Assembly (NCBI GenBank): GCA_028711065.1
Contig: JAQTSY010000005.1
Location: 7,656-71,655 of the forward strand
Length of the DNA stretch: 64,000 nucleotides
Direction of reading: 5' to 3'
Source of the DNA: Minisyncoccota bacterium
Lineage (GTDB): Bacteria > Patescibacteriota > Minisyncoccia > Phycocordibacterales > JAQTLZ01
Below, one piece after another: positions 9,150 to 29,704 of the stretch (its first letter is position 1; every line of letters begins with the position of its first letter). The notes below the pieces were generated by a model that was not told where the DNA came from, searched no databases, and saw only the letters and a program-made list of their open reading frames with translations. The translations under genes were made by a program, and so were the position numbers.

Positions 9150-10322
9150 TTAGAGAATGGTATTTGTCTCGCAGATTTTTTTATAAAGCAGGGCGGAGGG
9201 GCGAACGATACGTTCCATTGTATCATAATTTATTTTCACCAAGCCGAAGCGTTTGGTAAATCCTTCCGCCCATTCGTAGTTATCAAGAAGCGACCAGTAG
9301 AAGAATCCTTTTACATCCGCACCTTGTTCTATCGCCTGATGAACTGCGATAAGATGATCTCTGATGAATTTCCCTCTCTGGCTGTCATTTGCGTCTGCAA
9401 TGCCGTTTTCTGTTATATAGAGAGGTTTTTTGTACTCTTTCAGTTCCAGGAGCACATTTCGCAGTCCGTCCGGATAAACAGTCCATCCCATATCCGTGCG
9501 AGGCAAATTTTCAAGCTTCCCAAATGCAATATGTCGATAATAATTGACGCCGATAAAATCCTGGCACTCCCGGATGCCCTTCAGAAATTTATGATTCCAG
9601 AATTTGCGGGAAAAATTTGCCCGAACATCATTCCACCATCCTCCGCCAGAGCCGAAATCCATATTTTGTTTTGCAATGCCGATCTGGATCGAAGGATTTT
9701 TCTTTTTCATTTCGATGTATGCAAACCGGTGAGATTTCATCAAAATCTTGAGTGCTCTCCAATATTTTAAAATATCCCTTTTGAATGGTGGCCAGCCTCC
9801 GCGAAGATATCCATTCCCAAGCCAGACCATCGGCTCATTCATTGTCATCCAAAATTTCGCTTCGCTTCCAAGTTTTTCCACCACATATGCGCAATATCTG
9901 CCGAAAATTTCCGGTGCTTTTTTATTTTCAAATCCGCCCTTATCCCGAAACCAAAGAGGCAGAGTAAAGTGCCAAAGCGTCACAAAAGGCTCAAGCCCTC
10001 GCGCTTTGAGTGCGTGAAGAACTTTTCGATAATGCTCAATTTCTGCATCATCAAATTTCCCTTCTTCTGGCTCGATGCGGGCCCACTCGATTGAAAATCT
10101 GTGCGTGTTTTGAGAAAGTGATTTCGCAATATCAAAATCTTTTTCGTACAAATTGTAGTGATCGCAAGCTCGCCCGGTAAGAGGCACTTTTTTCTTCCGC
10201 CCAGCTTCAGCCCAATCCACATTCTCAATCCCGCCTTCTACCTGGTAAGAAGCCGTTGCACTCCCCCATAAAAACCCTTTCGGAAATTCTCGCGCTTGCG
10301 GAGCTGAAACATTTTTTTTCAT
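9150..10322 (-). CDS. GH1 beta-glucosidase
   Basis: FLWGSATASYQVEG near the N-terminus, TMNEP and ITENG catalytic motifs, and C-terminal WSLLDNYEWAEGF. The start was set at the internal MKKNVSAP. The 26-aa upstream extension in the ORF track looks spurious. Confidence 0.85.
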   Translation of the reverse strand: MKKNVSAPQAREFPKGFLWGSATASYQVEGGIENVDWAEAGRKKKVPLTGRACDHYNLYEKDFDIAKSLSQNTHRFSIEWARIEPEEGKFDDAEIEHYRKVLHALKARGLEPFVTLWHFTLPLWFRDKGGFENKKAPEIFGRYCAYVVEKLGSEAKFWMTMNEPMVWLGNGYLRGGWPPFKRDILKYWRALKILMKSHRFAYIEMKKKNPSIQIGIAKQNMDFGSGGGWWNDVRANFSRKFWNHKFLKGIRECQDFIGVNYYRHIAFGKLENLPRTDMGWTVYPDGLRNVLLELKEYKKPLYITENGIADANDSQRGKFIRDHLIAVHQAIEQGADVKGFFYWSLLDNYEWAEGFTKRFGLVKINYDTMERIVRPSALLYKKICETNTIL

Positions 10323-10420
10323 TATTGAATTATACAAGAAGTCTGTGATTTTGGCATACAAATCATACACAGCAAAACAATGTATTGCTTGTATCACTAG
10401 CCAAATCCAATTGAAATCCT

Positions 10421-14991: not shown

Positions 14992-16827
14992 TTATGCGGC
15001 TCGTCTCATTGTAATACCGCTCGATGGATCACTTTCGGTATAATTTCTCTCCACTTCTACCTCATCTCTTGCCGGAGATTGTGAGCCCGCTGCGCCTCCC
15101 AGAATCCCAGTCCTCTCTCGGGATTCCGCAAAACTTACAATTTTTTCTTGCCCGCCTCCAGTCGCAGGCATCTCTAGAGCCATTTGAGACCCATCTTGGT
15201 TTTCATTTTCTCGTTCCCGCTCCACACCAACCTTTTGCAGAGATTCTTGTCTTACTTCAGCACGAGAAATGTAAGGAGAAATAATAGGTGCTTTTTCAGA
15301 AGTTTCCTTCGCTTCAGATTTTTCAGTTTTTTCTCGGCTTTCAACTTCCGGTTTCTGTTCTTTTACTGGAATAATCTTTTCCTCTTTTATTTGAGGTTTT
15401 TCAGCAACAGTTTCTTCGGACTTTTCGACTTTTTCAAGCTTTTTGATTTCTGGTTTTACTAATTTTACTTTTTCAATGACAGGAACGATTTTCACTGGCT
15501 CTAATTCTTCTTTAGACTCTTCCATCTTCCTCTCTCGAATAATCGGTTCTTCTTTTGGAATTTCATCCTTAATAACAACATCCTGGGCCTCCACGACGGG
15601 AGACACTTCAACTTCTTTCTCCAACACTTCAGGAAGTATCTTTAACTCGATACCCGTAGGCATTTCTTCTTGCACCCGAACGTCAATAATAACCTTCTCA
15701 ACTTTATCCGTTTCTAATACAACTTCTTCAGGTGTAGTTTGGTCTTGAGAAATTATAGTTTCTTTATCCTCTTCAATTTTTACTTGCGGTTCTTTGGTTT
15801 CGATTTCTGGCGCGACATCCTCTATAATAATTTCTTCATCTTTGATTTCAGACATTTCTACCGCAACAACCTTTGTTTCTTCAGTTCTTTCAGTCTTTTT
15901 TGTAACAGCAGAAGTATCTGCTTTTTCTTGAGGCTTGAGAACCTCTTTTTGAACTGCTTCTGGTTTAGAAACGGTTTCCGGAGAAGATAGCTGCGCTTTC
16001 AAAGTATTAAAGTACGATGTGCCGTTAAACAAAGAGGCGATAGAAAAAGTATCGATGGTATTGGCCTTTTCTACTTCATCGTGTGTGGTTTGGCCTTCTT
16101 GAGCATTTGAAAAAGTCCCCACAGAATTTTCCATTCCCAACTGCCCACGCAATTCAGCATTTACATCAATAACAAGCGGTTCGGCCTGCATGAAAGGATC
16201 TCCATTATCAAAAGGCATACTTCCTTCATCAGAACCATCATCTTGATTGGCTTCAGTGAGCTTTACGAGTTCTTGTTCTGGATGTAAGTAATGGGAATAT
16301 TTAATCTCATTATTCTGGCCTTCAAGACGAACAAAAGTTACATGGGTACCTTTTTCATCAACAATTTTAAAAGAATAAGATCCTTTTTCAGCCAGACCCC
16401 TTCTCATCTCTTCATCTATCTTTCGAAAATTCTCATTCTCGTTCACAGAACCTTTCCCCTCCTTATCAGTCAGACACTCTTCGGTCGCCAAATCATAGAT
16501 TTTTCCATCTGTTTCATTTAAGTAAGTTTTATCACCGGAAATATTTATTTCATCATCTACCCCCCACTCCTTACCCCTTCCCCCATGTTCTTTCGCGATA
16601 ATTGCTCGAATATCTCCGTCTCTCCACTCTCCTCTTTCGTCTTTTCGTGAAGGCTTTTCTCCTAATTCTGTTTTAGACTCTCCTTCGGCCCCAGTCTCTT
16701 CAACACGCGAAGCTTCAGGATTGCCAAAATCTTCTCTGTAATCAAAAGCACGAAGAGGCTCTTCCGCGACGAAAGAACCTAAACCTGCCTGTTCTTCTAA
16801 TTCTGCTGTTGGAGCTGGCTCATCCAT
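14992..16827 (-). CDS. Large hyper-acidic E/K-rich low-complexity repeat protein (hypothetical, about 610 aa)
   Basis: Long runs of EKxxEVKP-type repeats (KEEPIIRERKMEESKEELEPVKIVPVIEKVKLVKPEIKK...). No signal peptide. The start is set at MDEPAP. The 28 upstream codons in the track are hydrophobic junk. Confidence 0.5.
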   Translation of the reverse strand: MDEPAPTAELEEQAGLGSFVAEEPLRAFDYREDFGNPEASRVEETGAEGESKTELGEKPSRKDERGEWRDGDIRAIIAKEHGGRGKEWGVDDEINISGDKTYLNETDGKIYDLATEECLTDKEGKGSVNENENFRKIDEEMRRGLAEKGSYSFKIVDEKGTHVTFVRLEGQNNEIKYSHYLHPEQELVKLTEANQDDGSDEGSMPFDNGDPFMQAEPLVIDVNAELRGQLGMENSVGTFSNAQEGQTTHDEVEKANTIDTFSIASLFNGTSYFNTLKAQLSSPETVSKPEAVQKEVLKPQEKADTSAVTKKTERTEETKVVAVEMSEIKDEEIIIEDVAPEIETKEPQVKIEEDKETIISQDQTTPEEVVLETDKVEKVIIDVRVQEEMPTGIELKILPEVLEKEVEVSPVVEAQDVVIKDEIPKEEPIIRERKMEESKEELEPVKIVPVIEKVKLVKPEIKKLEKVEKSEETVAEKPQIKEEKIIPVKEQKPEVESREKTEKSEAKETSEKAPIISPYISRAEVRQESLQKVGVERERENENQDGSQMALEMPATGGGQEKIVSFAESRERTGILGGAAGSQSPARDEVEVERNYTESDPSSGITMRRAA

Positions 16828-17066
16828 TTTGTATAAAAAAATAAAGACAAAAAATCCTTCTCGATGAAAGAAGGTGACGAAGAGACGCACGCGCGCACTC
16901 TTTAATCTCACATCCTTTACTCGAGGACTGACGAAACATACTTTCGTGCGCGGTATTCGGACTTCTCTTTTTCAAGAGTTACCGTAGCGGTACTGTGCCG
17001 GAATTACACCGGACTTCCCCAACGCAACGAAATAATTTTTCAAACACAACAATCAAAACCGGAAAC

Positions 17067-17105
17067 GTATATGGATATTATATGTCACGGAGAAACACGT
17101 GCAAG
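17067..17105 (-). promoter_or_regulatory. Candidate sigma70-type promoter (TTGCAC - 16 nt - TATAAT) for the acidic-protein gene, giving a roughly 240-nt leader
   Basis: On the minus strand: TTGCAC (plus 17099-17104), a 16-nt spacer, then TATAAT (plus 17077-17082). Confidence 0.35.
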
Positions 17106-17192
17106 AGTGGATTACTACGCACAGCACAGATTAAAATAAAAGCTAGGGAAAAATTTTTAAAGCTCATAAAATAAGGAGATTCCTGGAATTAG

Positions 17193-18077
17193 CTAAGAAC
17201 ACATCTCTTCAATCACTCCGTCCGTTAGATCATTATTACTAGGAAAAATCTCTGTGGCACCGACTTTCTTTGCAATTGCAAGATAAACAGATTGTCCAAC
17301 GGCAATATTGTCGCAAAACGCCGGATCTTTCGGATACATCTTTTTTAATTCATCGATTGGTGTTCGCCTTAATTTCTGAACATAATCAGAAAAACCATCC
17401 GGAGAAAACAGTATTGTGTGCACAGGAAATGTGCCTTGTGTAAAAGATAACTTAAGAGGAGAACTGATTAATTCTACGAAATGCAAGATTCCGGTGACAA
17501 AAATAATATCTGCCTTTTCGTTTATGATCATTTCCGCCTCTAAATACTTGTCGAGACTATCCCAATCAATAGCGCCATCACTCCGTAAAAATTTTGCCTT
17601 CAAAAATTTAACTCCGAAAGGGAATTTATTAAAGCTTTTTAGATCTTTCTTATATCCAAAAACTAATTCTGTACTTCCTCCGCCAATATTTACTGCTGCA
17701 AACTGGATTTTTGATGGAATCATATTAACAAACCCTTTATAGAGATAAAGAGCCTCTTTCTCTTGAGAAATAACCTCTGGCGTCACAGAAAGAATGTCCT
17801 CAACCATTCGGCAAAACTCGGGAGCATTTTTTGCTTTTCTCAAAGCCTCTGTGCCAAGGACTTTTAGCATTTTCACGCCTTCTTTTTTATTTCGGGCCAA
17901 AGCAACCGAAAGAAGCTCTGAAGCTCTCTGAAATGCCTCGGGAGCAATATTTTCAGCTACACCGAGACCAACATCGGAATATCGTTCAAAATGTATAAGT
18001 TTTTTGGGACCTTTTTTTACTTCAAAAATATAATGTTTGAGACTTTGAGTTCCAATATCAATGATCGAGATTTTCAT
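17193..18077 (-). CDS. Ppx/GppA-family phosphatase (exopolyphosphatase / pppGpp phosphohydrolase-like)
   Basis: MKISIIDIGTQSLKHYIF... and VNIGGGSTEL actin-like ATPase-fold motifs typical of Ppx/GppA. 294 aa. Confidence 0.7.
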   Translation of the reverse strand: MKISIIDIGTQSLKHYIFEVKKGPKKLIHFERYSDVGLGVAENIAPEAFQRASELLSVALARNKKEGVKMLKVLGTEALRKAKNAPEFCRMVEDILSVTPEVISQEKEALYLYKGFVNMIPSKIQFAAVNIGGGSTELVFGYKKDLKSFNKFPFGVKFLKAKFLRSDGAIDWDSLDKYLEAEMIINEKADIIFVTGILHFVELISSPLKLSFTQGTFPVHTILFSPDGFSDYVQKLRRTPIDELKKMYPKDPAFCDNIAVGQSVYLAIAKKVGATEIFPSNNDLTDGVIEEMCS

Positions 18078-18502
18078 GAATTGAAATAAACTCTTTTTTT
18101 CTGGTAATTTTCTAAAATAACTTTCGATCCCGAGAAAAGGGGCTCTGGCAGATTATCGAGCGGATACCAATCCCATTCTCCGCTTTTTTCTGGCTCCATC
18201 ACCCGCGGCTCTCCGCTTGACCAATCTGCCGACATTCCGATATGAACATAATGCCGAGGGGGATATAATTTCGTCGTACCAACCGAAACAAATCGAATAT
18301 TTTTTATTTCAATATCGCATTCCTCTTTCGTTTCGCGCATTGCGCACTCTTCAAACGTCTCCATGTACTCCAAATGTCCCCCGGGAAATTGATATTCCCC
18401 ATTCCCAAATTGCCCTTTTCTTTTAGCTAAAAGAATTTTGCCATCTTTGAAAACAATGACGCCCATCCCCACTCTGGGTTTTAATTCTTTTGAATCAGCC
18501 AT
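18074..18502 (-). CDS. NUDIX hydrolase
   Basis: Nudix box GGHLEYMETFEECAMRETKEECDI. 4-nt overlap (ATGA) with the downstream Ppx/GppA gene. Confidence 0.8.
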   Translation of the reverse strand: MADSKELKPRVGMGVIVFKDGKILLAKRKGQFGNGEYQFPGGHLEYMETFEECAMRETKEECDIEIKNIRFVSVGTTKLYPPRHYVHIGMSADWSSGEPRVMEPEKSGEWDWYPLDNLPEPLFSGSKVILENYQKKRVYFNS

Positions 18503-18506
18503 AAAA

Positions 18507-19052
18507 TTAAAACTTCATATGGAACCAATCAAGCCCGTAAATGTCGTTTATAAGCGCTCTTTCTCCCTTAGCCCATGTTTTATTTTTTGAAAGACCGAGA
18601 AGCGCGATTGCTTCTTTCACGTGTTCTTCGCTATTTCCTTCAATTTCGAGATACGCTGGCATTTGGGGATATTGATCGATATCAAATACCCAGTCTTTCA
18701 AAACAAAAGAGATCCTATCTTTTTCTTGATGTCCGTACAGTTCAAGACCAAGCTCTACAAAAAGATCGGCTAATTTTTCGGATTCCTCAATATTAAAATT
18801 AATTTCTTTGTGCTTGCGAGCAGTTCCCAAAATTTCCGATTTGGCTTTCCACGTCACTTCGCGTTTCCCTTCTGAATTCTGCCTAATTCGAAGAAACCAC
18901 GGATCATCACCTGCATGAGTAAGTCCCTTCGGGCCGAACCAATCGACAATAAGACGAGTTTCTTTAGTCTTCTTTGCGCCTAATTCTTTGAGCTTCGCGA
19001 TCAAATCCTTGCTGTCGATATCCAAAACCTTCGTCTCAATTTCATGCGCCAT
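18507..19052 (-). CDS. CYTH-domain protein (triphosphate-tunnel metalloenzyme; CyaB/ThTPase-like)
   Basis: N-terminal EIETKVL (ExExK), LRIRQ, and C-terminal YLEIEG acidic motifs of the CYTH fold. 181 aa. Confidence 0.6.
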   Translation of the reverse strand: MAHEIETKVLDIDSKDLIAKLKELGAKKTKETRLIVDWFGPKGLTHAGDDPWFLRIRQNSEGKREVTWKAKSEILGTARKHKEINFNIEESEKLADLFVELGLELYGHQEKDRISFVLKDWVFDIDQYPQMPAYLEIEGNSEEHVKEAIALLGLSKNKTWAKGERALINDIYGLDWFHMKF

Positions 19053-19057
19053 AAAAA

Positions 19058-19684
19058 TTAGGAGAAAATTTTAGCTACCGTGTCTGCAAAAGAAACATCC
19101 TTCAGCATGTCCTTTTTCCAACCCTGAACAAACTGTGTGAGAAATTTCTTCGCGATCTTGTCTTCCATGCCTTGTATCATTTTGATAAAAGTCGAGCTAA
19201 TGAGCTCTACATCAGATTTCATGAATTTATTGGCATACATTTTAAAATGCACAGCCTCAATATAATCAGCAATTTTTGCAATGCGTGATTCGTCTGATTC
19301 AAACGCCTGTTCTTCTTTTAAAAGATCTGCAAAATATCCTTTCTGTGCGCCAAAAAGACCGGAAAGATAGCGCTGATTTTCTATTTCAAATTTCTTCGCG
19401 TGCTTATAAGCTTCGGGATTTGCTTTCCTGTATCGCATAGAAATATCGCCTCCGAAAAGTTCCCCCAGATCATGCACGAGCGAAAGTTCAAGAACTTTTT
19501 TTATGTCGATCTTTGCGCCTTTCGTATTGAGAGAAGCGGCGATCTGCCACGCAAGCATTGCTACCAAATATTGATGCTCTGCCAGATTCGAAAGCGGCAT
19601 GTCTCCGCCATTTACGGCATACCCATACTGCGGCTGTTTGCGGGTAAGTTCCAAAATATGAAAAAGTTTCGTAAGGTGTTCCAT
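19058..19684 (-). CDS. HD-domain phosphohydrolase (YfbR-like)
   Basis: ...HQYLVAMLAW...LVHDLGELFGGD... is an H..HD-type metal-binding pattern. Confidence 0.65.
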   Translation of the reverse strand: MEHLTKLFHILELTRKQPQYGYAVNGGDMPLSNLAEHQYLVAMLAWQIAASLNTKGAKIDIKKVLELSLVHDLGELFGGDISMRYRKANPEAYKHAKKFEIENQRYLSGLFGAQKGYFADLLKEEQAFESDESRIAKIADYIEAVHFKMYANKFMKSDVELISSTFIKMIQGMEDKIAKKFLTQFVQGWKKDMLKDVSFADTVAKIFS

Positions 19685-19745
19685 GCCGATTATAGTAGCA
19701 AAAATTTAAAAAACAGTCTCAAAATGCTAAGCTTATCTAACACTC

Positions 19746-20306
19746 ATGGAAAATGACGATATCATTCTCATAGAAAAGTCCCTCGAGGGAGATACCTCTG
19801 CATTTGAAATTTTGGTAAGTCGATACCTGAAGCATATCTATAATTTCGTTTACCACCTCTCTGGAAACGTCGACGAAGCAAACGACATCTCCCAAGAAGT
19901 CTTCGTAAAAGTCTGGAAAAACCTCAAAAAGTTCGACCCAGAGCAGAATTTCAAGACTTGGCTTTTTTCCATTGCAAGAAATACTACGATCGACTATTTC
20001 CGAAAGAAAAAGAGTATCTCGTTCGGAGATATGGAAATCGGCGAGAGCACTTCGTTTGAAGATTCTCTAACAGATGAGGAACCGCTTCCTGATGAAATCT
20101 TTGAACGGAAAGAGCTCGGAACATTCTTGGAAAAAGCCCTTGAAACCCTGCCTCTAGAGGGGCGGACTATTATTCTTCTCCACGACAAAGAAGACCTGAC
20201 ATTTGAAGAGATATCGAAAATCCTTAAGAAACCCATGAACACCGTGAAAAGCCAGTATCGGAGAGCAATTCTTGCGTTTAGAAAGACAATGAATGCACCA
20301 AAATAA
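19746..20306 (+). CDS. ECF-type RNA polymerase sigma-70 factor
   Basis: Region 2 (YLKHIYNFVYHLSGNVDEANDISQEVFVKVWKNL) and region 4 (LPLEGRTIILLHDKEDLTFEEISKIL) signatures. Confidence 0.85.
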   Translation: MENDDIILIEKSLEGDTSAFEILVSRYLKHIYNFVYHLSGNVDEANDISQEVFVKVWKNLKKFDPEQNFKTWLFSIARNTTIDYFRKKKSISFGDMEIGESTSFEDSLTDEEPLPDEIFERKELGTFLEKALETLPLEGRTIILLHDKEDLTFEEISKILKKPMNTVKSQYRRAILAFRKTMNAPK

Positions 20307-20330
20307 GGCCTTTTATCGTATACTTACAAA

Positions 20331-20729
20331 ATGAAAACGTATCGAAATCTTTTTAATAACCTCTCTGAAAAGACTCCTCCTCAAGGATTATGTTTGTCCA
20401 TTATAAAAAAAGTAAGATCCATCCAAAGCCGTAATGCAAAAATTCGCTTTACACTCTCTTCGATCGTGACTCTGGTGTCTCTTGGCGGTATTTTTGAATC
20501 CATTCTCAAACTTATCGAAAGTTCAAACCAGTCAGGCTTTTCACAATATTTCTCTCTCATTTTTTCTGATAGCACCCTCTTCTTTTCATATTGGAAAGAA
20601 TTCGGGCTTTCTCTTGTCGAATCGCTTCCACTCGTCAGCCTCGTGTTTCTCCTTGGGATTGTCGTCGTCTTTCTTTGGTCAGGAGCTCGGGCACTCAAAG
20701 ATGCGCGCAGAACTTTTTTACCAGCATAA
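20331..20729 (+). CDS. Putative membrane-bound anti-sigma factor
   Basis: Directly follows the ECF sigma gene. 132 aa with TM segments. Confidence 0.4.
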   Translation: MKTYRNLFNNLSEKTPPQGLCLSIIKKVRSIQSRNAKIRFTLSSIVTLVSLGGIFESILKLIESSNQSGFSQYFSLIFSDSTLFFSYWKEFGLSLVESLPLVSLVFLLGIVVVFLWSGARALKDARRTFLPA

Positions 20730-20738
20730 TTTTTCATC

Positions 20739-21227
20739 ATGGATATTAAAAAGATATACGAATCAAAGACGGCACGCTCTATTTTCTTTGGGATCTGCAT
20801 AGCGATCGTGGCTCTTCTTATTTTTCAAGCGGGAATATTCGTTGGTTTGAGGAAAGCCGAATTTTCAGAGCGATTAGGAGAAAATTATTATCGAGCATTC
20901 GGACCATCACGGGACAGAGTGATGGGATTTTTCCGAGAAGAGATAGAGGGAGGTCATGGCGCGTCCGGGAAAATCGTCCGGATAGATCTGCCAACATTTG
21001 TCGTAGCTCAGGCAGATAATACTGAAAAGATCGTGATGATCGATAAAACGACAATACTTAGGCGCTTTCGAGAGGAAATAAAAGATACGGACCTCAAAGT
21101 TGATGATTCCGTAATTGTACTCGGCTCCCCCAACGAAGCAGGACAGATAGTAGCAAAATTCGTGAGACTCATCCCGGAAATGGCCACAAGTTCTCCCACC
21201 TCGACACAGCCAATTATGCATAACTAA
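20739..21227 (+). CDS. Membrane-anchored hypothetical protein
   Basis: N-terminal TM then a soluble domain. Same operon as the sigma/anti-sigma pair. Confidence 0.35.
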   Translation: MDIKKIYESKTARSIFFGICIAIVALLIFQAGIFVGLRKAEFSERLGENYYRAFGPSRDRVMGFFREEIEGGHGASGKIVRIDLPTFVVAQADNTEKIVMIDKTTILRRFREEIKDTDLKVDDSVIVLGSPNEAGQIVAKFVRLIPEMATSSPTSTQPIMHN

Positions 21228-21239
21228 CAATACCGCTCA

Positions 21240-22961
21240 ATGAATCAAACGATTAAAAACATAAAAAAATATTTTGTCGCGCACAAAGTAATCGGAACAA
21301 TAGTTGTTCTTGTTATTCTCTTAGGCGCCTACCGGATCTACAAGCATTATACTGCTCCATCGACAGCCCCCCGCTATGTGCTCGGAACTGTGTCGAGAGG
21401 AACTATCACCACATCAGTTACGGGTACCGGGCAAGTATCGGCTTCAAATCAAATCGAACTGAAAGCAAAAGCTTCCGGCGATATTGTCTATCTCCCTGCA
21501 GCAGTCGGACAGGAAATTCCGGCTGGCACACTTATCGCCCAAATAGACTCTCATGATGCGGCAATTGCTTTGGAAACCGCGCAATTGGCGCTCCAGAAGC
21601 TTGTAAAACCAGCTGACGCTGTATCTCTCTCTGAAGCCGAAAATGCCTTAGCAGATGCAAAAGACGCAAACAAGAAAGCGACGGATGACCTCGCCAAAGC
21701 ATATGACGACAGTCTTAGTGCTATTGCAAATTCTTTTCTTGATTTCTCTCCCACTCTTACAGGTATAGATGATATTTTGGGAAAACAAGACCTTTCTGAC
21801 AATAACGCACGCATAAGCGGAAGAACTGCACTTGATTTTAGAAATAAAGCTTCAGCTGCGTATTATCTCGCAGATAACGCCGTGCAAAAAGAGACTCGGG
21901 ATTACCGCACCTTTGACCATAACGCTTCTCCGGAAACAGTTGAAAATATTTTAAATGAAACCTATGATACGGCAAAACTCGTCTCTGAAGCCACAAAAGA
22001 TACGAGAAATTTTGTCGATTACATGGCTGAAGATTCGCAGAGGAGTTCCGACTTTTCCGGCTACCAGAATACGCTCGCAGGCTATACGGCGGAAATGAAC
22101 GGGCACGTAGTTGATCTTCTTTCAATTCAAAATACTATTTCGGACGCGAAAAATACTATTTCCAGTTCGGCTCGAAGCATTCAGGAGAAAACTGAAGCGC
22201 TCCAGAAGATCAAAGACGGCACAGACGAACTCGATGTCCGTTCACAGGAGCTTTCCGTTCAGCAAAAAGAGTACGCGTACGAAGATTATTTCATCCGAGC
22301 GCCTTTTGACGGAGTCCTCGCGAAACTGGATGTGCGAAAAGGAGATTCGATAGGTTCTGGTGGTAGCCTCGGCACATTTTTAAGCAAGAATAAAATCGCC
22401 GATATTTCACTGAATGAAGTCGACGTTGCCCGCATAAAAGACGGACAGAAAGTCATGCTGACCTTTGACGCTATTGACGGTCTTACCATTTCAGGAGAGG
22501 TGGTAGAAACAGATCTGGTTGGCACAGTCACGCAAGGAGTCGTGAATTACAATGTGAAGATCGCCTTTGATACGGAGGACGATCGAGTGAAAGCGGGAAT
22601 GAGCGCGAACGCTGCCATTATTACTGACGTAATCCAAGACGTATTAATTGTTCCGAACAGCGCAGTGAAAACTCAAGGAAACACTCATTACGTAGAAATG
22701 TTTACAACGCCAATAACAAGCGCAAGTGCAGATACTGCGCAAGGAATTACTTCCGCTACATTGCCCAGTCAACAGGTAGTGGAAATCGGAACCTCAAATG
22801 ATACTCAAACCGAAATTACTTCGGGACTCAAAGAAGGAGATCAGATCGTAGTGCGAACTATCACCCCTTCAACCACAACTACGACAGCCCAGGCTCCAAG
22901 CCTCTTCGGAGGAAATACCCGCGCTGTCACAACTGGCGGAGCGCGCGGAGCCGGAAGATAG
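21240..22961 (+). CDS. HlyD/MacA-family periplasmic adaptor (membrane fusion protein)
   Basis: N-terminal TM, a lipoyl/beta-barrel-type start (GTVSRGTITTSVTGTG...ELKAKASG), a long coiled-coil, and a C-terminal beta domain. Confidence 0.7.
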   Translation: MNQTIKNIKKYFVAHKVIGTIVVLVILLGAYRIYKHYTAPSTAPRYVLGTVSRGTITTSVTGTGQVSASNQIELKAKASGDIVYLPAAVGQEIPAGTLIAQIDSHDAAIALETAQLALQKLVKPADAVSLSEAENALADAKDANKKATDDLAKAYDDSLSAIANSFLDFSPTLTGIDDILGKQDLSDNNARISGRTALDFRNKASAAYYLADNAVQKETRDYRTFDHNASPETVENILNETYDTAKLVSEATKDTRNFVDYMAEDSQRSSDFSGYQNTLAGYTAEMNGHVVDLLSIQNTISDAKNTISSSARSIQEKTEALQKIKDGTDELDVRSQELSVQQKEYAYEDYFIRAPFDGVLAKLDVRKGDSIGSGGSLGTFLSKNKIADISLNEVDVARIKDGQKVMLTFDAIDGLTISGEVVETDLVGTVTQGVVNYNVKIAFDTEDDRVKAGMSANAAIITDVIQDVLIVPNSAVKTQGNTHYVEMFTTPITSASADTAQGITSATLPSQQVVEIGTSNDTQTEITSGLKEGDQIVVRTITPSTTTTTAQAPSLFGGNTRAVTTGGARGAGR

Positions 22962-22976
22962 TTTTTCCCTTATTGT

Positions 22977-23687
22977 ATGATCGAAATCAAAGATGTCACA
23001 AAAACATACTCATCAGGAGATCTCGCCTTTCAAGCTCTTCGCGGAGTGAGCTTTACTATTGCCGACGGAGAATTCGTGGCCATCATGGGACCATCTGGGT
23101 CTGGGAAATCAACACTCATGCATATTCTTGGCGCTCTTGATACGCCGACCTCTGGGAAATATTTTCTTGACGGAAAAGATGTTTCAACATTAACCGATGA
23201 TGAACTAGCGGACATCAGGAGAGACAAAGTCGGTTTCGTTTTTCAAGCTTTTAACCTCCTTCCGCGGGCAACAGTTCTGCGAAATGTAATGCTCCCGCTT
23301 GTGTATGAAGGAATAGAAAAAGAAGAACGGGTGAAGCGCGCTGAATCGGCACTCAAAGCAGCAGGGCTCGACGAAGCTCATTTTTCACATCTTTCCAACC
23401 AGCTCTCCGGCGGACAAATTCAACGCGTTGCAATTGCCCGGGCGCTTGTGAATAATCCCACCCTCATTCTGGCAGACGAGCCTACTGGAAACCTCGATAC
23501 AAAAACGGGGGAAATCGTGCTCGGAACATTTCAACGCCTCAATGAAGAACAAGGACGCACGATCATTCTCATCACCCACGAACCCGACGTGGCAGAACAC
23601 GCAGAAAGAATTATTCATATTAAAGACGGGCTCATTCTAAGCGACAGCAAGAAACATACCCGAAAAATCATTAATAAAAAGCAATGA
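22977..23687 (+). CDS. ABC transporter ATP-binding protein (MacB/LolD-like)
   Basis: Walker A GPSGSGKST, ABC signature LSGGQIQRVAIARAL, Walker B ILADEPTGNLD. Confidence 0.9.
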   Translation: MIEIKDVTKTYSSGDLAFQALRGVSFTIADGEFVAIMGPSGSGKSTLMHILGALDTPTSGKYFLDGKDVSTLTDDELADIRRDKVGFVFQAFNLLPRATVLRNVMLPLVYEGIEKEERVKRAESALKAAGLDEAHFSHLSNQLSGGQIQRVAIARALVNNPTLILADEPTGNLDTKTGEIVLGTFQRLNEEQGRTIILITHEPDVAEHAERIIHIKDGLILSDSKKHTRKIINKKQ

Positions 23688-24895
23688 CTTCGCTCGACAT
23701 TCTTCAAGAAACATACATCGCTCTCTCTTCGAACAAAGTCCGAACAGGACTCACCATGCTCGGCATTGTGATCGGAATTGGCTCTGTCATTGCCATGGTT
23801 TCTATCGGCCAAGGCGCAAAAGCGCAGATCCAATCTTCGATCGAGGGACTCGGATCAAATCTTCTCACTATTCTTCCCGGCGTGGTCCAACCGGGGCGAG
23901 GACTTGTTTCATCTGGCAGAGGTTCGGCCCAAAGCCTGAAAAATGAAGATGCTACTGCCATCCAGCAAATTGACGGAATTGCAGCGCTTTCTCCGGAACT
24001 TTCACGAAGATTCCAGGTGAGCGCCCCAACAGGAAACAACACCAACACAACAGTGAACGGCGTTCTGCCGGCTTACATTACCGTAAGAAATCTTACCGTC
24101 GCAGATGGAAACTTTTTAACTGACGCGAGCGTTCGGAGCATCTCGCGCGAGGCGGTGCTCGGAGCGAATGTTGCAAAAGACCTCTTTGCAGACGCGGAAC
24201 CAGTCGGCAAAACGATTCGAGTTAATAATGCAATTTTCCGAGTTGTCGGAGTGCTTACCGCCAAAGGCGGAGCGGGATTTTCCGGGCCGGATGATCTGGT
24301 GATCGTCCCCCTCTCGACCATGCAGAAAGTATTAAGCGGCGTTGATTATCTTTCAGCATTGTACGTGAGCGTTACGGACAAAGACCAGATGAATTCGGTG
24401 CGGGATGTGATAACAGAAACACTTCTTGAAAAACACCGGGTCTCCGAAGCTGATTTCTCAATTATTTCTCAAGAAGATATTCTTGGCACACTTTCACAGG
24501 TGGTAAATACCTTTACCCTCTTTCTTGCCTCTATCGCGGGCATTTCGCTCGTCGTCGGCGGAATCGGCATTATGAATATGATGCTCACCACCGTAACAGA
24601 ACGAACGAAAGAGATCGGACTTCGCAAAGCGATCGGAGCAAAAAGCAGCGACATCAATACTCAATTTCTGGTGGAAGCCATCATGCTGACTTTCATTGGA
24701 GGGTTTGTGGGAATCGTCCTTGGATGGTCTATTGCATCGGCTGTAACTTACCTCGGTATTGTGCAGACCCAAGTGTCACTTTCTTCGATATTGCTCGCTT
24801 TCGGTGTTTCTGCAGCGATCGGAATTATCTTCGGATATTACCCCGCTCGTCGTGCCGGAAAATTAAATCCGATCGAGGCTTTGCGATACGAGTAA
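23684..24895 (+). CDS. ABC transporter permease (MacB/FtsX family)
   Basis: N-terminal TM, large periplasmic domain, C-terminal FtsX-type 3-TM bundle. 4-nt overlap with the ATPase gene. Confidence 0.85.
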   Translation: MTSLDILQETYIALSSNKVRTGLTMLGIVIGIGSVIAMVSIGQGAKAQIQSSIEGLGSNLLTILPGVVQPGRGLVSSGRGSAQSLKNEDATAIQQIDGIAALSPELSRRFQVSAPTGNNTNTTVNGVLPAYITVRNLTVADGNFLTDASVRSISREAVLGANVAKDLFADAEPVGKTIRVNNAIFRVVGVLTAKGGAGFSGPDDLVIVPLSTMQKVLSGVDYLSALYVSVTDKDQMNSVRDVITETLLEKHRVSEADFSIISQEDILGTLSQVVNTFTLFLASIAGISLVVGGIGIMNMMLTTVTERTKEIGLRKAIGAKSSDINTQFLVEAIMLTFIGGFVGIVLGWSIASAVTYLGIVQTQVSLSSILLAFGVSAAIGIIFGYYPARRAGKLNPIEALRYE

Positions 24896-24923
24896 AAATT
24901 TAATAAATAATGTAATAAAAGAT

Positions 24924-25325
24924 ATGAATAAAAAAATTGTAGGAGTTATTGTAGTCATTATCATCGCAGGAGCGAGTTTCTATGGAGGGATGCAATATGG
25001 AAAGAATAGCGTTACAAGCGCATTCAGCGCTCGATTTGGACAAGGTGGAGCGGGTGGAGGACAAAGAGGTGCTCGAGGAGGCGCAAATGGAGGAGGATTT
25101 GTGACGGGAACAGTATTATCGCAGGATACGAATGGCATCACTGTTCAACTGCGAAGCGGCGGTTCTCAAATCATTCTCATCTCTTCAAGCACGCCAATCA
25201 TGAAAAGTGTCGCCGGCGGAGAATCTGACCTGCAAAAAGGACAAAACGTAATGGTCATGGGAACCACAAATCCGGACGGCAGTCTCACTGCTGAGTCAGT
25301 TCAGATACGACAAGCGAGCAATTAA
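24924..25325 (+). CDS. Small Gly-rich secreted protein (hypothetical)
   Basis: Signal/TM segment, then GQGGAGGGQRGARGGANGGG and a beta-rich C-terminus. Confidence 0.35.
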   Translation: MNKKIVGVIVVIIIAGASFYGGMQYGKNSVTSAFSARFGQGGAGGGQRGARGGANGGGFVTGTVLSQDTNGITVQLRSGGSQIILISSSTPIMKSVAGGESDLQKGQNVMVMGTTNPDGSLTAESVQIRQASN

Positions 25326-25327
25326 CC

Positions 25328-26956
25328 TCACGAGGAAGTAAAGAGCACACCTTCGTATGGCCGGAGGGTAACAGTATTCTCTTTTGAAGAAAGAGGCGTG
25401 TTCATGTACGTCGAACATGCAATTTGTAATTTCCTTCCTTCGACAACAAGTTCTTCATTCACTATTTCATTTGAAAAGTTGAGCATGACAAACCACTCTT
25501 CTTTCGATGTCTTTCTGCTGTAAAAGAATACATCGGATGATTTCGCGTTTCTCGGAACGTATTCGCCATAGCGAAGAGCCTCCGATGCGTTCCTATAGTA
25601 GAGAAGCATTTTATAAAGATAAAACATTGATTCCGGATTCGCCCTTTCTGTTTTCACATTCACCTTCGCGTAGTCTTCAGAGACGGGGAGCCAAGGTTCC
25701 ACTTCTGAAAAGCCTGCGTTCAAATCATCCGACCATTGCATCGGCGTCCTTTCCGGATCACGAAGAATGGAAGGATTTTCAATGAGCGTGGCGAAGCCGT
25801 CTTTCATTTTGTGTTTTGGTATTTCCACATTTTTCATGCCTATTTCTTCTCCGTAATAGACAAAAACAGTACCCCGAAGCGTAAGAAGCATGAGAGCGAG
25901 AAGCCGTGTACGAGTCTCTCCAAAGCGCGTAAGTACTCTCCTATGATCATGGTTACCCAGCACATAGGTCGGAACTCTTTTTGGTCCAACAAGCTTATCG
26001 AAAGCGTTTATAAATGCTCTGTAAATTTCTGCAGACCACGGCTTTTTAAATAATTCAAAAAGATTGAAATTAAAAGGAGTATGATTCCGATACGTACACC
26101 CGTCATAGATCTTTATAAGCTGTGTAAGATCGACATACGATTCTGTCACAATAAAGATGTCCCGATATTTTTTCGAGGATTCGCATATTAGATTAATAAC
26201 TCCGATTACTTCCGGCTGATTTTCATCATACATATGAAGATACTCATCGTATGGCAAATCAACCCCCTTCACGAAATGAGTATTCACAGGGTCATCCCGA
26301 AAACGCTTGTCTTCAACTGTATGCGCGACAGCATCCACACGAAAACCATCGACTCCCCTTTTGAGCCAGAAATCAATTATCTTTTTAAATTCTTTGCGCA
26401 CCTCATCGTTTCTCCAATTCAAATCTGGCTGATGCGGAAGGAAATGATGAAGATAGCATTGTCCAGTCGATGGGTCAGGTGTCCATGCAGAACCGCCGGA
26501 AACAGCAAGCCAATTATTCGGTGGCAAACCTCCTGGAAGCGGATCCTTCCAGACATACCAATCTCTTTTCGGATTGGTTTTCGACATTCTAGCTTCTTGA
26601 AACCAAGGATGCTCGCGGGAAGTGTGATTGACCACCAAATCCATAATAATTTTAAGTCCCCGCTTATGCGCCTCCGCAACAAGCTTGTCAAAAATCTCGA
26701 GCGTCCCGAATCGAGGATCTATATCGCAATAATCGGTCACATCATAGCCAAAATCTTTCATCGGCGATGGGTAGACGGGTGAAATCCACAAAGCATCAAC
26801 TCCTAATGAATGCGGGCTGCCCCGGAAATAATCGAGTCTTGAAATAATACCTTCAAGGTCGCCAATACCGTCTCCGTTGGAATCTTGAAAGCTCCACGGA
26901 TAGATCTGATAGATAACCGCGTTTTCGTACCACTTCGGCCGTTGAAACCAAAACAT
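25328..26956 (-). CDS. GH13 alpha-glucosidase / oligo-1,6-glucosidase-like
   Basis: YQIYPWSF, DGIGDLEGI, GVDALWISP, DLVVNHTS, GFRVDAV. These are the canonical GH13 regions. Confidence 0.85.
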   Translation of the reverse strand: MFWFQRPKWYENAVIYQIYPWSFQDSNGDGIGDLEGIISRLDYFRGSPHSLGVDALWISPVYPSPMKDFGYDVTDYCDIDPRFGTLEIFDKLVAEAHKRGLKIIMDLVVNHTSREHPWFQEARMSKTNPKRDWYVWKDPLPGGLPPNNWLAVSGGSAWTPDPSTGQCYLHHFLPHQPDLNWRNDEVRKEFKKIIDFWLKRGVDGFRVDAVAHTVEDKRFRDDPVNTHFVKGVDLPYDEYLHMYDENQPEVIGVINLICESSKKYRDIFIVTESYVDLTQLIKIYDGCTYRNHTPFNFNLFELFKKPWSAEIYRAFINAFDKLVGPKRVPTYVLGNHDHRRVLTRFGETRTRLLALMLLTLRGTVFVYYGEEIGMKNVEIPKHKMKDGFATLIENPSILRDPERTPMQWSDDLNAGFSEVEPWLPVSEDYAKVNVKTERANPESMFYLYKMLLYYRNASEALRYGEYVPRNAKSSDVFFYSRKTSKEEWFVMLNFSNEIVNEELVVEGRKLQIACSTYMNTPLSSKENTVTLRPYEGVLFTSS

Positions 26957-26989
26957 GGTTTTATTATAACGCAGATTGTAAAATCTATC

Positions 26990-28138
26990 TCAGCCGTTTT
27001 TATGGTCTTTCCAGTGTTTCTCCCAGATGATTGTATGCAGTTTTGCAAAAAGCTTTTCGGCTTTTAATTTTGTCTTTTCATCAGCATTTGCCAGTGAGCG
27101 CACCGCGAGAAGAAGCTGTTTCGCTCCCTTCTCTATTTCTGTCGGGTTCCAAGAGACTGGAGAAAATGGGCCAATTTTTCTCTCGCTTGCCCACCACCAT
27201 GCACAGCTAGCTACTCCTTTGTCGGCATACTTTCTTGCTTTCCCATATTCTAGATCTCCCTGCGCACCCTCGACGGTTTTAAGCACAAAATTCCTAAACA
27301 GATTGAGGCGTTTATGAATTATATTTCTCGGGTCGTCCCAGAGCCCAAAAGGAATTTTTTCGGCAAGTTCTTCTTTCGTGGATTCCCAGCTTGCTTCGCG
27401 AACCGAAATCGTTTCCTTTTTCGAAAGACGGGAAAGATATTCTGAAGCGGTAAGATTTTGTACCTCTTTGTCAGTGAAGATACGTTCATAAAATCCCCTG
27501 TCATCTGTATGCCAATGGCCGTAAAGTTCTCCATCATGAAGGGTGATAATATAATTTGCGAACTTCTCTTTATTTTTTGAAATATATTCGGGAGGAAATG
27601 TTTTCGAGAACTCGGAGTTTCGAAAAATGACATTCAGCCCGTTGCCTTTCAAAACGTATCTGACTTCCGGATCCACTTTAACTTCTGCATGGGTTTCATC
27701 GAGAACGAGAAAAGTAAATCCAAGCTTTTTCAAGAGAGATGCAATTTTAGGCCCATAGGCAAGTTCAGGCAGATAAAAACCGGCCATTTTGTAGGCGTCT
27801 CCGAAATATTTTCTCAAAACATCCTCGTTGAGGCGTATCTGCCGCTCTATCTCTTTTTTCGACAAAAGCGGAAGTATTGGATGATACATCGCACTCCCGA
27901 GAAGCTCGATTCTCCCCTCGATGGCATATTTTCGAATACCATCGATGATGTCAGCCCTTCCATATTTTTCTAAAAGCTCCACAAGCGAGCCGTTAATATT
28001 CAAAGTAATTTTAAGAGTCGGGTATTTTTCAAGAAGCTTCAAAATAAGCGAGTAGCTTTCGTTTGAAACTTTTTCTATCACCTCCTTTTCCTGCGTCGGC
28101 GGCTGATAAATATGCAATATGTTTACCCAATACTTCAT
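26990..28138 (-). CDS. GH57-family glycoside hydrolase
   Basis: N-terminal ILHIYQPP (GH57 HxHQP-type motif). 382 aa. Confidence 0.6.
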   Translation of the reverse strand: MKYWVNILHIYQPPTQEKEVIEKVSNESYSLILKLLEKYPTLKITLNINGSLVELLEKYGRADIIDGIRKYAIEGRIELLGSAMYHPILPLLSKKEIERQIRLNEDVLRKYFGDAYKMAGFYLPELAYGPKIASLLKKLGFTFLVLDETHAEVKVDPEVRYVLKGNGLNVIFRNSEFSKTFPPEYISKNKEKFANYIITLHDGELYGHWHTDDRGFYERIFTDKEVQNLTASEYLSRLSKKETISVREASWESTKEELAEKIPFGLWDDPRNIIHKRLNLFRNFVLKTVEGAQGDLEYGKARKYADKGVASCAWWWASERKIGPFSPVSWNPTEIEKGAKQLLLAVRSLANADEKTKLKAEKLFAKLHTIIWEKHWKDHKNG

Positions 28139-28146
28139 ACAAGAAA

Positions 28147-29649
28147 TTATTTGCCATTCCCTCCTCCATTCCGCATAAATTTCTTCTTGAGCCGTATGGT
28201 GGTCTTGTAAAGCTCAATATATTTTTGCGCTGGAATGATCCATGAATTCGCCTGTTGGAGGCAGAAGACGACAAGGTCTCGCCATGTATCTTTGTATTTA
28301 TACGTTTCAAGGGCCCGGACGATGGCGATCAAAAGATTTCCGGAGTCGTATCTCGGAAAAGTAAAGCCATTTCCAGTCTGCTCGTACGGATCAAAATCGG
28401 TGATGGTATCAGCAAGCCCGCCGATATGGTGAACGATCGGGATACAGCCGTAGCGGAGGGCGATGAGCTGATTGAGACCGCACGGTTCAAAACGCGATGG
28501 CAAAAGAAACATATCGGAGCCGGCGTAGAGAGACGTCTCCATATTACTATCAAAAGGTATGAAAGCGAATTTCTTGGGAAATTCTTTTTCGACAGACAAA
28601 AGCATATCGCTCAAAGCCTTATCTCCATCTCCCATGATGATGATCTGCGCATTCAAGCGCAAAATAGTAGAGACCACCAAAGAAAAAAGATCGAATCCTT
28701 TCTGATTGGTAATGCGGGACGTCATGCAGATGAGCGGGACTGACTCATCGACTTCCAGACCGTACTTTTTCTGAATATAAAGCTTATTATCTTTTTTTCT
28801 TCCAGCAGACTTGTCACTGTAATGCTGAACGAGACCGGGATCAGTCAGGGGGTTGTAGTCGTCGTAATCAATACCGTTTACGATTCCAAAGACAATTTTC
28901 TCGCGATTTTTAAGAACACGATTCAATTCCTGGCCGAAGTCCTTGGTCATGATTTCCTCTCGATACGTCTCTGATACGGTATTGATCGCATCGGCGTTCA
29001 TAATTGCTCGTTTGGCGAAATTGATCTTTTCAACCCTATCCACGTCGTCGAAAGTCGGCAATGAAGAAGTTCCGGGATCTCGCTCCCCTTCAGGAATTGC
29101 CCACCAGTCGTGGCCCAGCTGGAATGCAAGATTATGTATCGTGAAAAGGCATGCGGTGTCATGCCAAAATTCGTCTTTTTTATATCTGCCTCGCAAAAAA
29201 TAAGGAATGAGCCCTGTGTGCCAATCGTGACAATGAAGCACATTCGCTTTCAGATTGAGAAGTTTCAGAAGATGGAGCGCTGCCACATCGAAGAAAAAGA
29301 AGCGGGCGTTGTCGTTTACGGCACCGTAGAGAGTATTTCGTTCGCCGAAAAATTTCTTGCTCGCGACGAAATACACGGGAACATCGCTTGAAGGAAGCAT
29401 TCCCTTCAAGAAACTAACTTCTTCCCAAATGCCGGGAGAAAGTTCTACGTGTTCATTTTCTGCAACAACCTCAAGCGTCTGACCTTCGACGTTGATGATA
29501 TTCTCGTAGTAAGGAGTGATAATGAGAACGTTATGGCCAAGCTCTCGATGAGCGCGAGGAAGGGAGCCTCCAATCGTGGCTAAACCGCCGCTTTTGGAGA
29601 ATGGCTGGACTTCAGAGATGATATGGGCGATCGTAAGTCGTTGGCGCAT
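28147..29649 (-). CDS. glgA: Glycogen/starch synthase (GT5)
   Basis: Conserved KSGGLATIGGSLP motif (compare K[TS]GGL.DV), about 490 aa, and the GT-B C-terminal region. The start is at the internal Met (MRQRL). Confidence 0.8.
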   Translation of the reverse strand: MRQRLTIAHIISEVQPFSKSGGLATIGGSLPRAHRELGHNVLIITPYYENIINVEGQTLEVVAENEHVELSPGIWEEVSFLKGMLPSSDVPVYFVASKKFFGERNTLYGAVNDNARFFFFDVAALHLLKLLNLKANVLHCHDWHTGLIPYFLRGRYKKDEFWHDTACLFTIHNLAFQLGHDWWAIPEGERDPGTSSLPTFDDVDRVEKINFAKRAIMNADAINTVSETYREEIMTKDFGQELNRVLKNREKIVFGIVNGIDYDDYNPLTDPGLVQHYSDKSAGRKKDNKLYIQKKYGLEVDESVPLICMTSRITNQKGFDLFSLVVSTILRLNAQIIIMGDGDKALSDMLLSVEKEFPKKFAFIPFDSNMETSLYAGSDMFLLPSRFEPCGLNQLIALRYGCIPIVHHIGGLADTITDFDPYEQTGNGFTFPRYDSGNLLIAIVRALETYKYKDTWRDLVVFCLQQANSWIIPAQKYIELYKTTIRLKKKFMRNGGGNGK

Positions 29650-29704
29650 AAAATGTGCAAGTGGGTACAATAATACCACATTTTCGGCCTATTTCAAAGG
29701 AGCA

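Follow-up and report, generated by a model that had tools for sequence, protein, structure and literature searches.

The 64,000-nucleotide stretch of Minisyncoccota DNA analysed here (contig JAQTSY010000005.1 of assembly GCA_028711065.1; hereafter the window) encodes four consecutive hydrolases on its minus strand, between 17193 and 19684: an HD-domain phosphohydrolase, a CYTH protein, a NUDIX hydrolase and a Ppx/GppA-like phosphatase. We read these genes, with a probability of roughly one half, as a modular hydrolase set that sanitises the nucleotide pool, feeds salvage and recovers phosphate, with a triphosphatase of the triphosphate tunnel metalloenzyme (TTM) type as its anchor. Across Paceibacteria the CYTH ortholog is the constant element of a variable neighbourhood that is strongly enriched in nucleotide-handling enzymes.

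The first gene of the run encodes the HD protein (19058-19684; 208 amino acids, YfbR/HD_3 type) and is followed by the genes for the CYTH/TTM protein (18507-19052; 181 amino acids; Pfam CYTH 3.1e-9), an AtNUDX1/NUDT15-like NUDIX hydrolase (18074-18502; 142 amino acids; Pfam NUDIX 75.4 bits, 5.4e-21) and a Ppx/GppA-like two-domain ASKHA phosphatase (17193-18077; 294 amino acids; Pfam Ppx-GppA 1.4e-25). In the open reading frame (ORF) listing of the window the four are packed at operon spacing, with 5 nucleotides between the HD stop and the CYTH start, 4 nucleotides between the CYTH stop and the NUDIX start, and a 4-nucleotide overlap, ATGA, that holds both the NUDIX stop and the ppx start (18074-18077). 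An earlier reading of the window made from its letters alone (the sequence-only reading) had described this minus-strand run and its ATGA overlap; both were found as described, and the Pfam families agreed with those it had named. The run consists of exactly four genes and ends at 17193, because an adenosylcobalamin (AdoCbl) riboswitch downstream of ppx (16903-17044, minus strand; 60.5 bits, gathering score 50) starts a new unit. No terminator directly after ppx was found in a scan of 16800-19900. The best reading of this layout is that the four genes form one co-transcribed cassette.

A genome scan that yielded 80 species loci showed the CYTH orthologs to be 50-94% identical across Paceibacteria. 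All ORFs within 3 kb of CYTH were clustered all-against-all for 82 loci and the cluster labels were checked by Pfam. The most frequent neighbour was a HIT protein (17 loci), often fused to an N-terminal cytidylyltransferase-like (FAD-synthetase-like) nucleotidyltransferase domain, as at 1392-2240 of locus L065. It was followed by NUDIX proteins of the window type and CYTH paralogs (11 loci each), nucleoside diphosphate kinase (NDK; 10 loci, plus 3 in an unverified NDK-like cluster), SLOG proteins (9), YfbR-type HD proteins (6), another HD group (5), and histidine phosphatases and three other NUDIX groups (4 loci each). The same-strand gene immediately upstream of CYTH encoded HIT at 14 loci, NDK at 7 and HD at 5, and the one immediately downstream encoded NUDIX at 6. 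A distance profile was then drawn with hidden Markov models (HMMs) of the neighbour clusters, counted per 1-kb bin up to 6 kb. In the first kilobase from CYTH, nucleotide-handling genes numbered 46 per 100 kb, and in the successive bins beyond 11, 10, 2.4, 0.9 and 0.9 per 100 kb. Of the 72 loci with 1 kb or more on either side of CYTH, 44 had a gene for HIT, NUDIX, NDK, HD, histidine phosphatase, SLOG or a CYTH paralog centred within 1 kb of it. Over all 82 loci, 70 of the 72 neighbour genes of this kind lay on the CYTH strand.

Several loci carry longer runs of these enzymes. Six consecutive genes at 399-4193 of L046 are arranged as NUDIX-CYTH-NUDIX-NUDIX-HIT-CYTH, L024 has an HD-CYTH-NUDIX-NUDIX run, and at 3827-6540 of L060 three CYTH paralogs and an NDK gene stand in a row (CYTH-NDK-CYTH-CYTH). 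The sequence-only reading had considered the concentration of hydrolases in the window unusual; such runs are in fact common in Paceibacteria. Many of the records compared, L037 and L083 among them, are titled 'uncultured Gammaproteobacteria', 'Methanosarcinales archaeon' or 'Candidatus Saccharibacteria' and are probably mislabelled or mis-binned metagenome-assembled genomes (MAGs).

The sequence-only reading had also proposed to look for the same four-gene order in related genomes, where it was found in part; it would have taken the genes for chance neighbours had they never been co-localised in relatives or had CYTH lacked ExExK, and neither is the case. The CYTH ortholog was taken with 6-kb flanks from 80 species and the flanks were searched with the four window proteins. 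The full HD-CYTH-NUDIX-Ppx set was found only in L001/L002, whose CYTH is 94% identical to that of the window. Locus L108, which was found by look-up of a Ppx-like homolog, has three of the four genes (HD, CYTH and Ppx, without NUDIX) beside a divergent gene for an extracytoplasmic function (ECF) sigma factor, and its proteins are 89% (CYTH), 74% (HD) and 63% (Ppx) identical to those of the window. Locus L007 (CYTH 88% identical) differs in encoding a HIT-CYTH-NUDIX-CYTH2 cassette, and keeps a window-like sigma/anti-sigma/DUF5666/MacA context beside it. In the remaining 80 loci, each from a different species, neither the four-gene set nor a Ppx-like gene was found in the 6-kb flanks of CYTH, and Ppx-like is not a general CYTH partner. 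The pairs HD-CYTH, CYTH-NUDIX and NUDIX-Ppx do recur in other lineages. Three cassette arrangements are therefore present within one genus-level clade (CYTH 88-94% identical), in which CYTH is constant and its flanking partners are exchanged, HD or HIT upstream and Ppx-like or CYTH2 downstream. The enzymes swapped in for one another (HD/HIT and Ppx/CYTH2) have similar chemistry, and the exchange looks like functional displacement.

CYTH proteins are ancient and widespread, and their physiological role in bacteria is largely unknown (PMC8233210). An exact-sequence look-up of the window CYTH protein returned no record; the closest homologs of both it and the Ppx-like protein are encoded by MAGs named Candidatus Pacebacteria/Paceibacterota or Patescibacteria, which assigns the window to Paceibacteria, within the candidate phyla radiation. 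An alignment of 22 CYTH orthologs showed E4, E6, K8, R55, R57, K69, E136 and E138 to be invariant. Among them are the residues of the ExExK motif (E4-I-E6-T-K8), the presence of which the sequence-only reading had left to a closer alignment, and of the RxR (R55xR57) and ExE (E136xE138) motifs, both of which are intact. In CYTH proteins RxR binds the beta and gamma phosphates and ExE, on beta8, serves two-metal catalysis (PMC8233210). Class IV adenylate cyclases are marked by an HF dipeptide four residues ahead of ExExK, by loss of the first Arg of RxR in favour of a small residue, and by a change of ExE to ExA (Vogt et al. 2021, PMC8233210). The HFxxxxExExK extension is not present in the window protein, the N-terminus of which is MAHEIETK, and only three residues precede ExExK in all of the orthologs except two. 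As both Arg and both Glu are also kept, the protein, judged by its residues, fails all three cyclase marks. Its sole NCBIfam match, TIGR00318 (cyaB), scored 39 bits, which is below the 58-bit cut-off.

The AlphaFold2 (AF2) model of the CYTH protein (mean predicted local distance difference test score, pLDDT, 90.9) has a predicted closed eight-stranded beta-barrel tunnel fold. Its best Foldseek match was SaTTM (7NS9; template modelling (TM) score 0.81), with PH1012, PF0863 and the class IV cyclase YpAC-IV also among the top matches; thiamine triphosphatase (ThTPase) structures were only distant matches. The motifs and the model together identify the protein as a predicted two-metal triphosphate-tunnel hydrolase of the TTM/ThTPase type, not a cyclase. 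The CyaB-type cyclisation that the sequence-only reading had allowed for was rejected on the three sequence criteria, as the one idea in direct conflict with the evidence. With all three class IV cyclase determinants absent from the protein, the making of a cyclic messenger is unlikely.

Like the window protein, the inorganic triphosphatases SaTTM (Saci_0718), CthTTM and NeuTTM are single-domain proteins of ~180 amino acids in which ExExK, RxR and ExE are all present. SaTTM, which is a tripolyphosphate (PPPi) hydrolase (PMC8233210), shares only 18% identity with the window protein and has Ala54 where the window family has Phe or Tyr; the window family, unlike SaTTM, is conserved at 50-94% across Paceibacteria and stands in nucleotide-enzyme neighbourhoods. 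CyaB and YpAC-IV have the fold in common with the window protein, which differs from them in lacking HF and in keeping the first Arg of RxR and the second Glu of ExE. Two residues before R55 the window protein has F53, which is Tyr in 2 of the 22 orthologs. This position is held by a thiazole-stacking Trp in ThTPase (W/YxRxR) and by Ala54 in SaTTM (PMC8233210); the Phe of the window protein is not the W/Y stated for ThTPase. An aromatic residue at this position hints at an organic triphosphate as the substrate.

The window Nudix box can be aligned with the consensus GX5EX7REUXEEXGU as G42-x5-E48-x7-R56-E57-T-K-E60-E61-C-D63-I64. All of the catalytic Glu residues are there, and by this alignment the box appears catalytically complete, its only departure being Asp (D63) in place of the last Gly. 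The nearest structures in the PDB are Arabidopsis NUDX1 (AtNUDX1) and human NUDT15 (MTH2), which match the window protein over the whole domain (E ~1e-27). Both differ from it in having Gly at the penultimate box position, as does the L007 ortholog.

The HD protein matched the Pfam families HD_3 (1.7e-16) and YfbR-like (2.7e-16; 60.2 bits against a 25.9-bit cut-off), and its PDB neighbours are the Pyrococcus 'oxetanocin-like' proteins 1xx7 and 2cqz and E. coli YfbR (2paq). Residues H37, H71-D72, E75, D80 and D140 align with the H...HD...E...D...D of the Pyrococcus homologs. The protein departs from the latter in its N-terminal P-Q-Y-G-Y, where 1xx7 and 2cqz have P-R-M-G-W, and from E. coli YfbR in falling under the equivalog cut-off of the NCBIfam 5'-deoxynucleotidase model NF003009 (47.5 bits, cut-off 122 bits). 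Family matches and the residues of the metal site and of catalysis place it in the YfbR/HD_3-type 5'-nucleotidase group, to which we assign it as a putative member. Enzymes of this group are known as 5'-nucleotidases, that is, as phosphomonoesterases. The statement of the sequence-only reading that all four families cleave phosphoanhydride bonds is too broad because the HD group cleaves phosphomonoesters.

The Ppx-like protein scored 90.7 bits against the Ppx-GppA Pfam family (PF02541; cut-off 27 bits) and has kept the phosphate loops D7-I-G-T-Q-S and G132-G-G-S135. Against the NCBIfam models it reached 111 bits for exo_poly_only (cut-off 307) and 58 bits for GppA (cut-off 624). Its AF2 model (pLDDT 93.5) matched PPX/GppA structures with TM scores of 0.75-0.84, those of Aquifex, P. 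gingivalis, H. pylori and D. radiodurans ranking at the top. An apyrase (NTPDase) fold was rejected, since all PPX/GppA structures ranked above NTPDases. The protein belongs to a subfamily found only in Patescibacteria, which comprises ~75 clusters at 39-95% identity, the next homologs being at most 31% identical.

This subfamily has an altered active site. The Asp of the DIGGGSTE loop (D141 in Aquifex, D136 in the D. radiodurans exopolyphosphatase DrPPX) is Asn130 in the window protein, and the Asn is invariant in 19 subfamily members, whereas canonical Ppx/GppA homologs in the alignment carry Asp. The remaining catalytic acids, D7, E108 and E137, are kept, leaving the four-acid set of exopolyphosphatase/GppA incomplete (D7, E108, N130, E137). 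The four acids were compared with those of DrPPX, in which Ala mutants of each of the conserved D7, E114, D136 and E143 lowered activity (PMC11234463). The best match in both sequence and structure was the Aquifex aeolicus PPX/GppA (1T6C, 2J4R). It likewise has ~300 amino acids and two ASKHA domains without C-terminal HD-like domains, and the counterparts of its E119 and E148 (and, with doubt, D8) are kept. It differs in its low identity (21%) and in having Asp141 where the whole Patescibacterial subfamily has Asn130. Rv1026 of Mycobacterium tuberculosis (Mtb), a PPX-GppA homolog, is an ATPase/ADPase without activity on polyphosphate (polyP) or pppGpp (PMC3411833), which shows that membership of the Ppx/GppA family does not determine the substrate. 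Compared by description only, the activity of Rv1026 fits the nucleotide context of the window gene, although Rv1026 is not known to carry the Asp-to-Asn change.

Viewed from the Ppx-like gene, the contexts are mixed across ~17 distinct loci, a census that is thin because the metagenome scan gave only 17 loci, many of them short. In L090 (32-6076) a Ppx-like homolog 43% identical to that of the window lies inside a complete deoxynucleotide operon, together with genes for a MazG-like protein, dihydrofolate reductase (DHFR), ThyA, dCMP deaminase, serine hydroxymethyltransferase (SHMT), nucleoside 2-deoxyribosyltransferase, deoxynucleoside kinase (dNK)/thymidylate kinase and dUTPase. The distant lineage of L100 has a NUDIX gene that overlaps the Ppx-like gene by 4 nucleotides. 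Elsewhere the Ppx-like gene adjoins a family I pyrophosphatase gene (L104), stands beside genes for Maf, NUDIX, SLOG and DHH-DHHA2 proteins (L110), or has HD genes (L088, L096) or HAD hydrolase genes (L088, L089) nearby.

By analogy with characterised relatives, the cassette would work as follows. The NUDIX enzyme would convert canonical or damaged (d)NTPs to (d)NMPs and pyrophosphate (PPi), and the YfbR-type HD protein would take the last phosphate off (d)NMPs to yield nucleosides. The CYTH protein would hydrolyse a triphosphate, which may be inorganic (PPPi) or carried by an organic compound, and the Ppx-like protein would remove terminal phosphates from short polyP or from NTPs and NDPs. 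On balance the nucleotide pool would be sanitised, salvage would be supplied with nucleosides and phosphate would be recovered. Bacteria of the candidate phyla radiation (CPR) are often without nucleotide synthesis (PMC7304191), and such a cassette would suit a member of this group, which is often unable to make nucleotides de novo. Fusions of CYTH domains to HD, exopolyphosphatase and nucleotide-kinase domains were noted in 2002 by Iyer and Aravind (as cited in PMC8233210), and PMC8233210 situates CYTH domains where nucleotide metabolism and phosphate metabolism meet. The associations reported there are fusions, while the link in the window is an operon, the commonest partners are NUDIX, HIT and NDK, and a CHAD domain is not present. 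The dedicated pathway proposed by the sequence-only reading can be retained as a theme of nucleotide and oligophosphate turnover, in line with the gradient from 46 to ~1 gene per 100 kb around CYTH; the synthesis of a cyclic messenger, which it had also envisaged, is not supported.

Several points weigh against nucleotide-pool sanitation and salvage as the role of the cassette. No neighbour of the kinds counted lies within 1 kb at 28 of the 72 CYTH loci, and related neighbours of the Ppx-like gene were not found in about 6 of the 17 contexts (L087, L091, L093, L095, L098 and L109). The exchange of partners could have its cause in a site prone to recombination, without any pathway in common. 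The density gradient is somewhat inflated because the HMMs were built from clusters within 3 kb of CYTH, although members of wide families, NUDIX and HD for example, would have been picked up farther away as well. The aromatic residue ahead of RxR is a weak clue because the CYTH paralog of L007 also has Phe there. The substrates proposed for CYTH, HD and the Ppx-like protein follow from family resemblance at 18-30% identity and are putative to that extent.

A set of enzymes for degrading inorganic polyP and triphosphate was considered as an alternative. The Ppx-like protein would shorten polyP and CYTH would turn tripolyphosphate, which on this view is poorly handled by exopolyphosphatases, into PPi and phosphate, with NUDIX and HD as accessories. 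The structural matches speak for this, since only PPX/GppA structures top the list for the Ppx-like protein, which retains D7, E108 and E137, and the nearest CYTH structure belongs to a PPPi hydrolase. The pyrophosphatase of L104, the DHH-DHHA2 protein near the Ppx-like gene of L110 and the second CYTH in the place of Ppx-like in L007 are also in its favour. The genomic associations of CYTH speak otherwise: its usual partners (HIT, NUDIX, NDK and HD) act on nucleotides, and the Ppx-like gene is not near CYTH in the 80 other species loci. The Ppx-like protein, moreover, carries Asn in place of one of the conserved acids, at which mutation to Ala reduces PPX activity, and remains at 111 bits against an exopolyphosphatase cut-off of 307, and no polyphosphate kinase was seen in the part of the 64 kb that is annotated. 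We regard polyP degradation as unlikely. A role in alarmone or second-messenger turnover, in which the Ppx-like protein would convert pppGpp to ppGpp in the manner of GppA, NUDIX would degrade (p)ppGpp and CYTH would act as a CyaB-type cyclase, is highly improbable. It can draw on the pppGpp hydrolases included in the Ppx/GppA family, on NUDIX enzymes, some of which degrade ppGpp, and on cyaB being the sole NCBIfam match of CYTH. That match is below its cut-off, however, and CYTH fails the three cyclase marks; the annotated parts of the window showed neither RelA/SpoT nor another cyclase. PPX-GppA homologs also need not hydrolyse pppGpp (PMC3411833). A literature search linking Patescibacteria/Parcubacteria to CYTH, to ppGpp/RelA or to polyphosphate kinase/exopolyphosphatase found nothing relevant.

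The four genes might also share no pathway at all and be independent housekeeping hydrolases packed together by chance where a small genome is dense and prone to rearrangement. Short gaps are common in gene-dense CPR genomes, the exact set is limited to one close relative, partners change even among close relatives and the contexts of the Ppx-like gene are heterogeneous, all of which speak for chance adjacency. Against it stand the steep gradient of nucleotide genes around CYTH with 70 of 72 on the same strand, the 4-nucleotide NUDIX-Ppx overlap in two distant lineages, and the similar chemistry of the replacements. We consider chance adjacency quite unlikely, and favour the modular set for nucleotide-pool sanitation, salvage and phosphate recovery. 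A role in defence was dropped, as the sole PADLOC match among the four proteins was a generic NUDIX candidate (PDC-S07).

The cassette is separated by a 61-nucleotide divergent intergenic region (19685-19745) from an ECF-type sigma factor gene on the plus strand (19746-20306; Sigma70_r2 and r4_2; TIGR02937 123 bits), the divergent position of which the sequence-only reading had recognised correctly. This gene opens a plus-strand series (19746-25325) that continues with a 132-amino-acid membrane protein, a DUF5666 protein, a MacA-like adaptor (573 amino acids), an ABC ATPase, a MacB/FtsX permease and a second DUF5666 protein. The membrane protein that follows the sigma factor is a probable anti-sigma factor. 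An ECF sigma gene lies beside the cassette in L007 and L108 too. In L001 a MarR regulator replaces the sigma/anti-sigma/DUF5666 block, and both the efflux genes and the hydrolase cassette are retained in place. The 43 nucleotides directly before the HD start codon are the same in L001, and those of L108 resemble them. The ECF sigma factor is set apart from the cassette because it is replaced by MarR in L001, yet the 43 nucleotides upstream of HD are identical there; on these grounds its control of the cassette is held to be unlikely. Most likely it serves the anti-sigma/DUF5666/MacAB efflux operon on its own strand and not the hydrolase unit.

A perfect TATAAT within the 43 nucleotides shared with L001 ends 4 nucleotides before the HD ATG, and no Shine-Dalgarno sequence is visible at 19685-19700 (minus strand). 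From these letters we infer that the cassette may have its own housekeeping-type promoter, and its mRNA is possibly leaderless at HD. A consensus promoter scan of 16800-19900 gave no more sites than in shuffled sequences.

Beyond the cassette, the AdoCbl riboswitch is followed by a terminator-like hairpin and T-run (16856-16874, minus strand). The ORF below it (14992-16911, minus strand) encodes a Glu/Lys-rich, low-complexity protein of 639 amino acids without a Pfam match, translation of which probably begins at the internal Met of MDEPAP. L001 has a 633-amino-acid gene without a Pfam match in the equivalent position, past a 340-nucleotide gap. The 639-amino-acid protein could serve this CPR bacterium at the surface or in scavenging, under B12 control. 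A second NUDIX gene (33961-34401, minus strand; 146 amino acids; Pfam 1.4e-23) lies ~15 kb from the cassette, directly after an APH-family phosphotransferase gene (34401-35309), and overlaps the next ORF by 4 nucleotides. The window also contains a glycogen/starch group (25328-29679, minus strand), which encodes an alpha-amylase (542 amino acids), a GH57 protein (382 amino acids) and a starch-synthase-type glycosyltransferase (510 amino acids), and a GH1 glycosidase gene at 9150-10397.

All four families, and the association of CYTH with HD and exopolyphosphatase, were already known, and current concepts are unchanged by the present analysis. A literature search found no paper on the high conservation of CYTH in Paceibacteria, on its mix-and-match partners or on the Asn-bearing Ppx-like subfamily. 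Automated pipelines call members of this subfamily exopolyphosphatase/GppA, a label that may be wrong. The neighbourhood described here is a testable lead to the substrate of bacterial CYTH proteins and, equally, to the way in which CPR bacteria clean and recycle nucleotides. A bolder proposal, which we put forward as doubtful, is that the Paceibacterial CYTH and the Asn130 Ppx-like protein, instead of being inorganic polyphosphatases, are both directed at nucleotides and form, with NUDIX, HIT, HD and NDK, a CPR-specific route from NTP to nucleoside and phosphate. If this were true, stepwise dephosphorylation of NTPs would be core to the life of auxotrophic CPR bacteria on host-derived, scavenged or damaged nucleotides.

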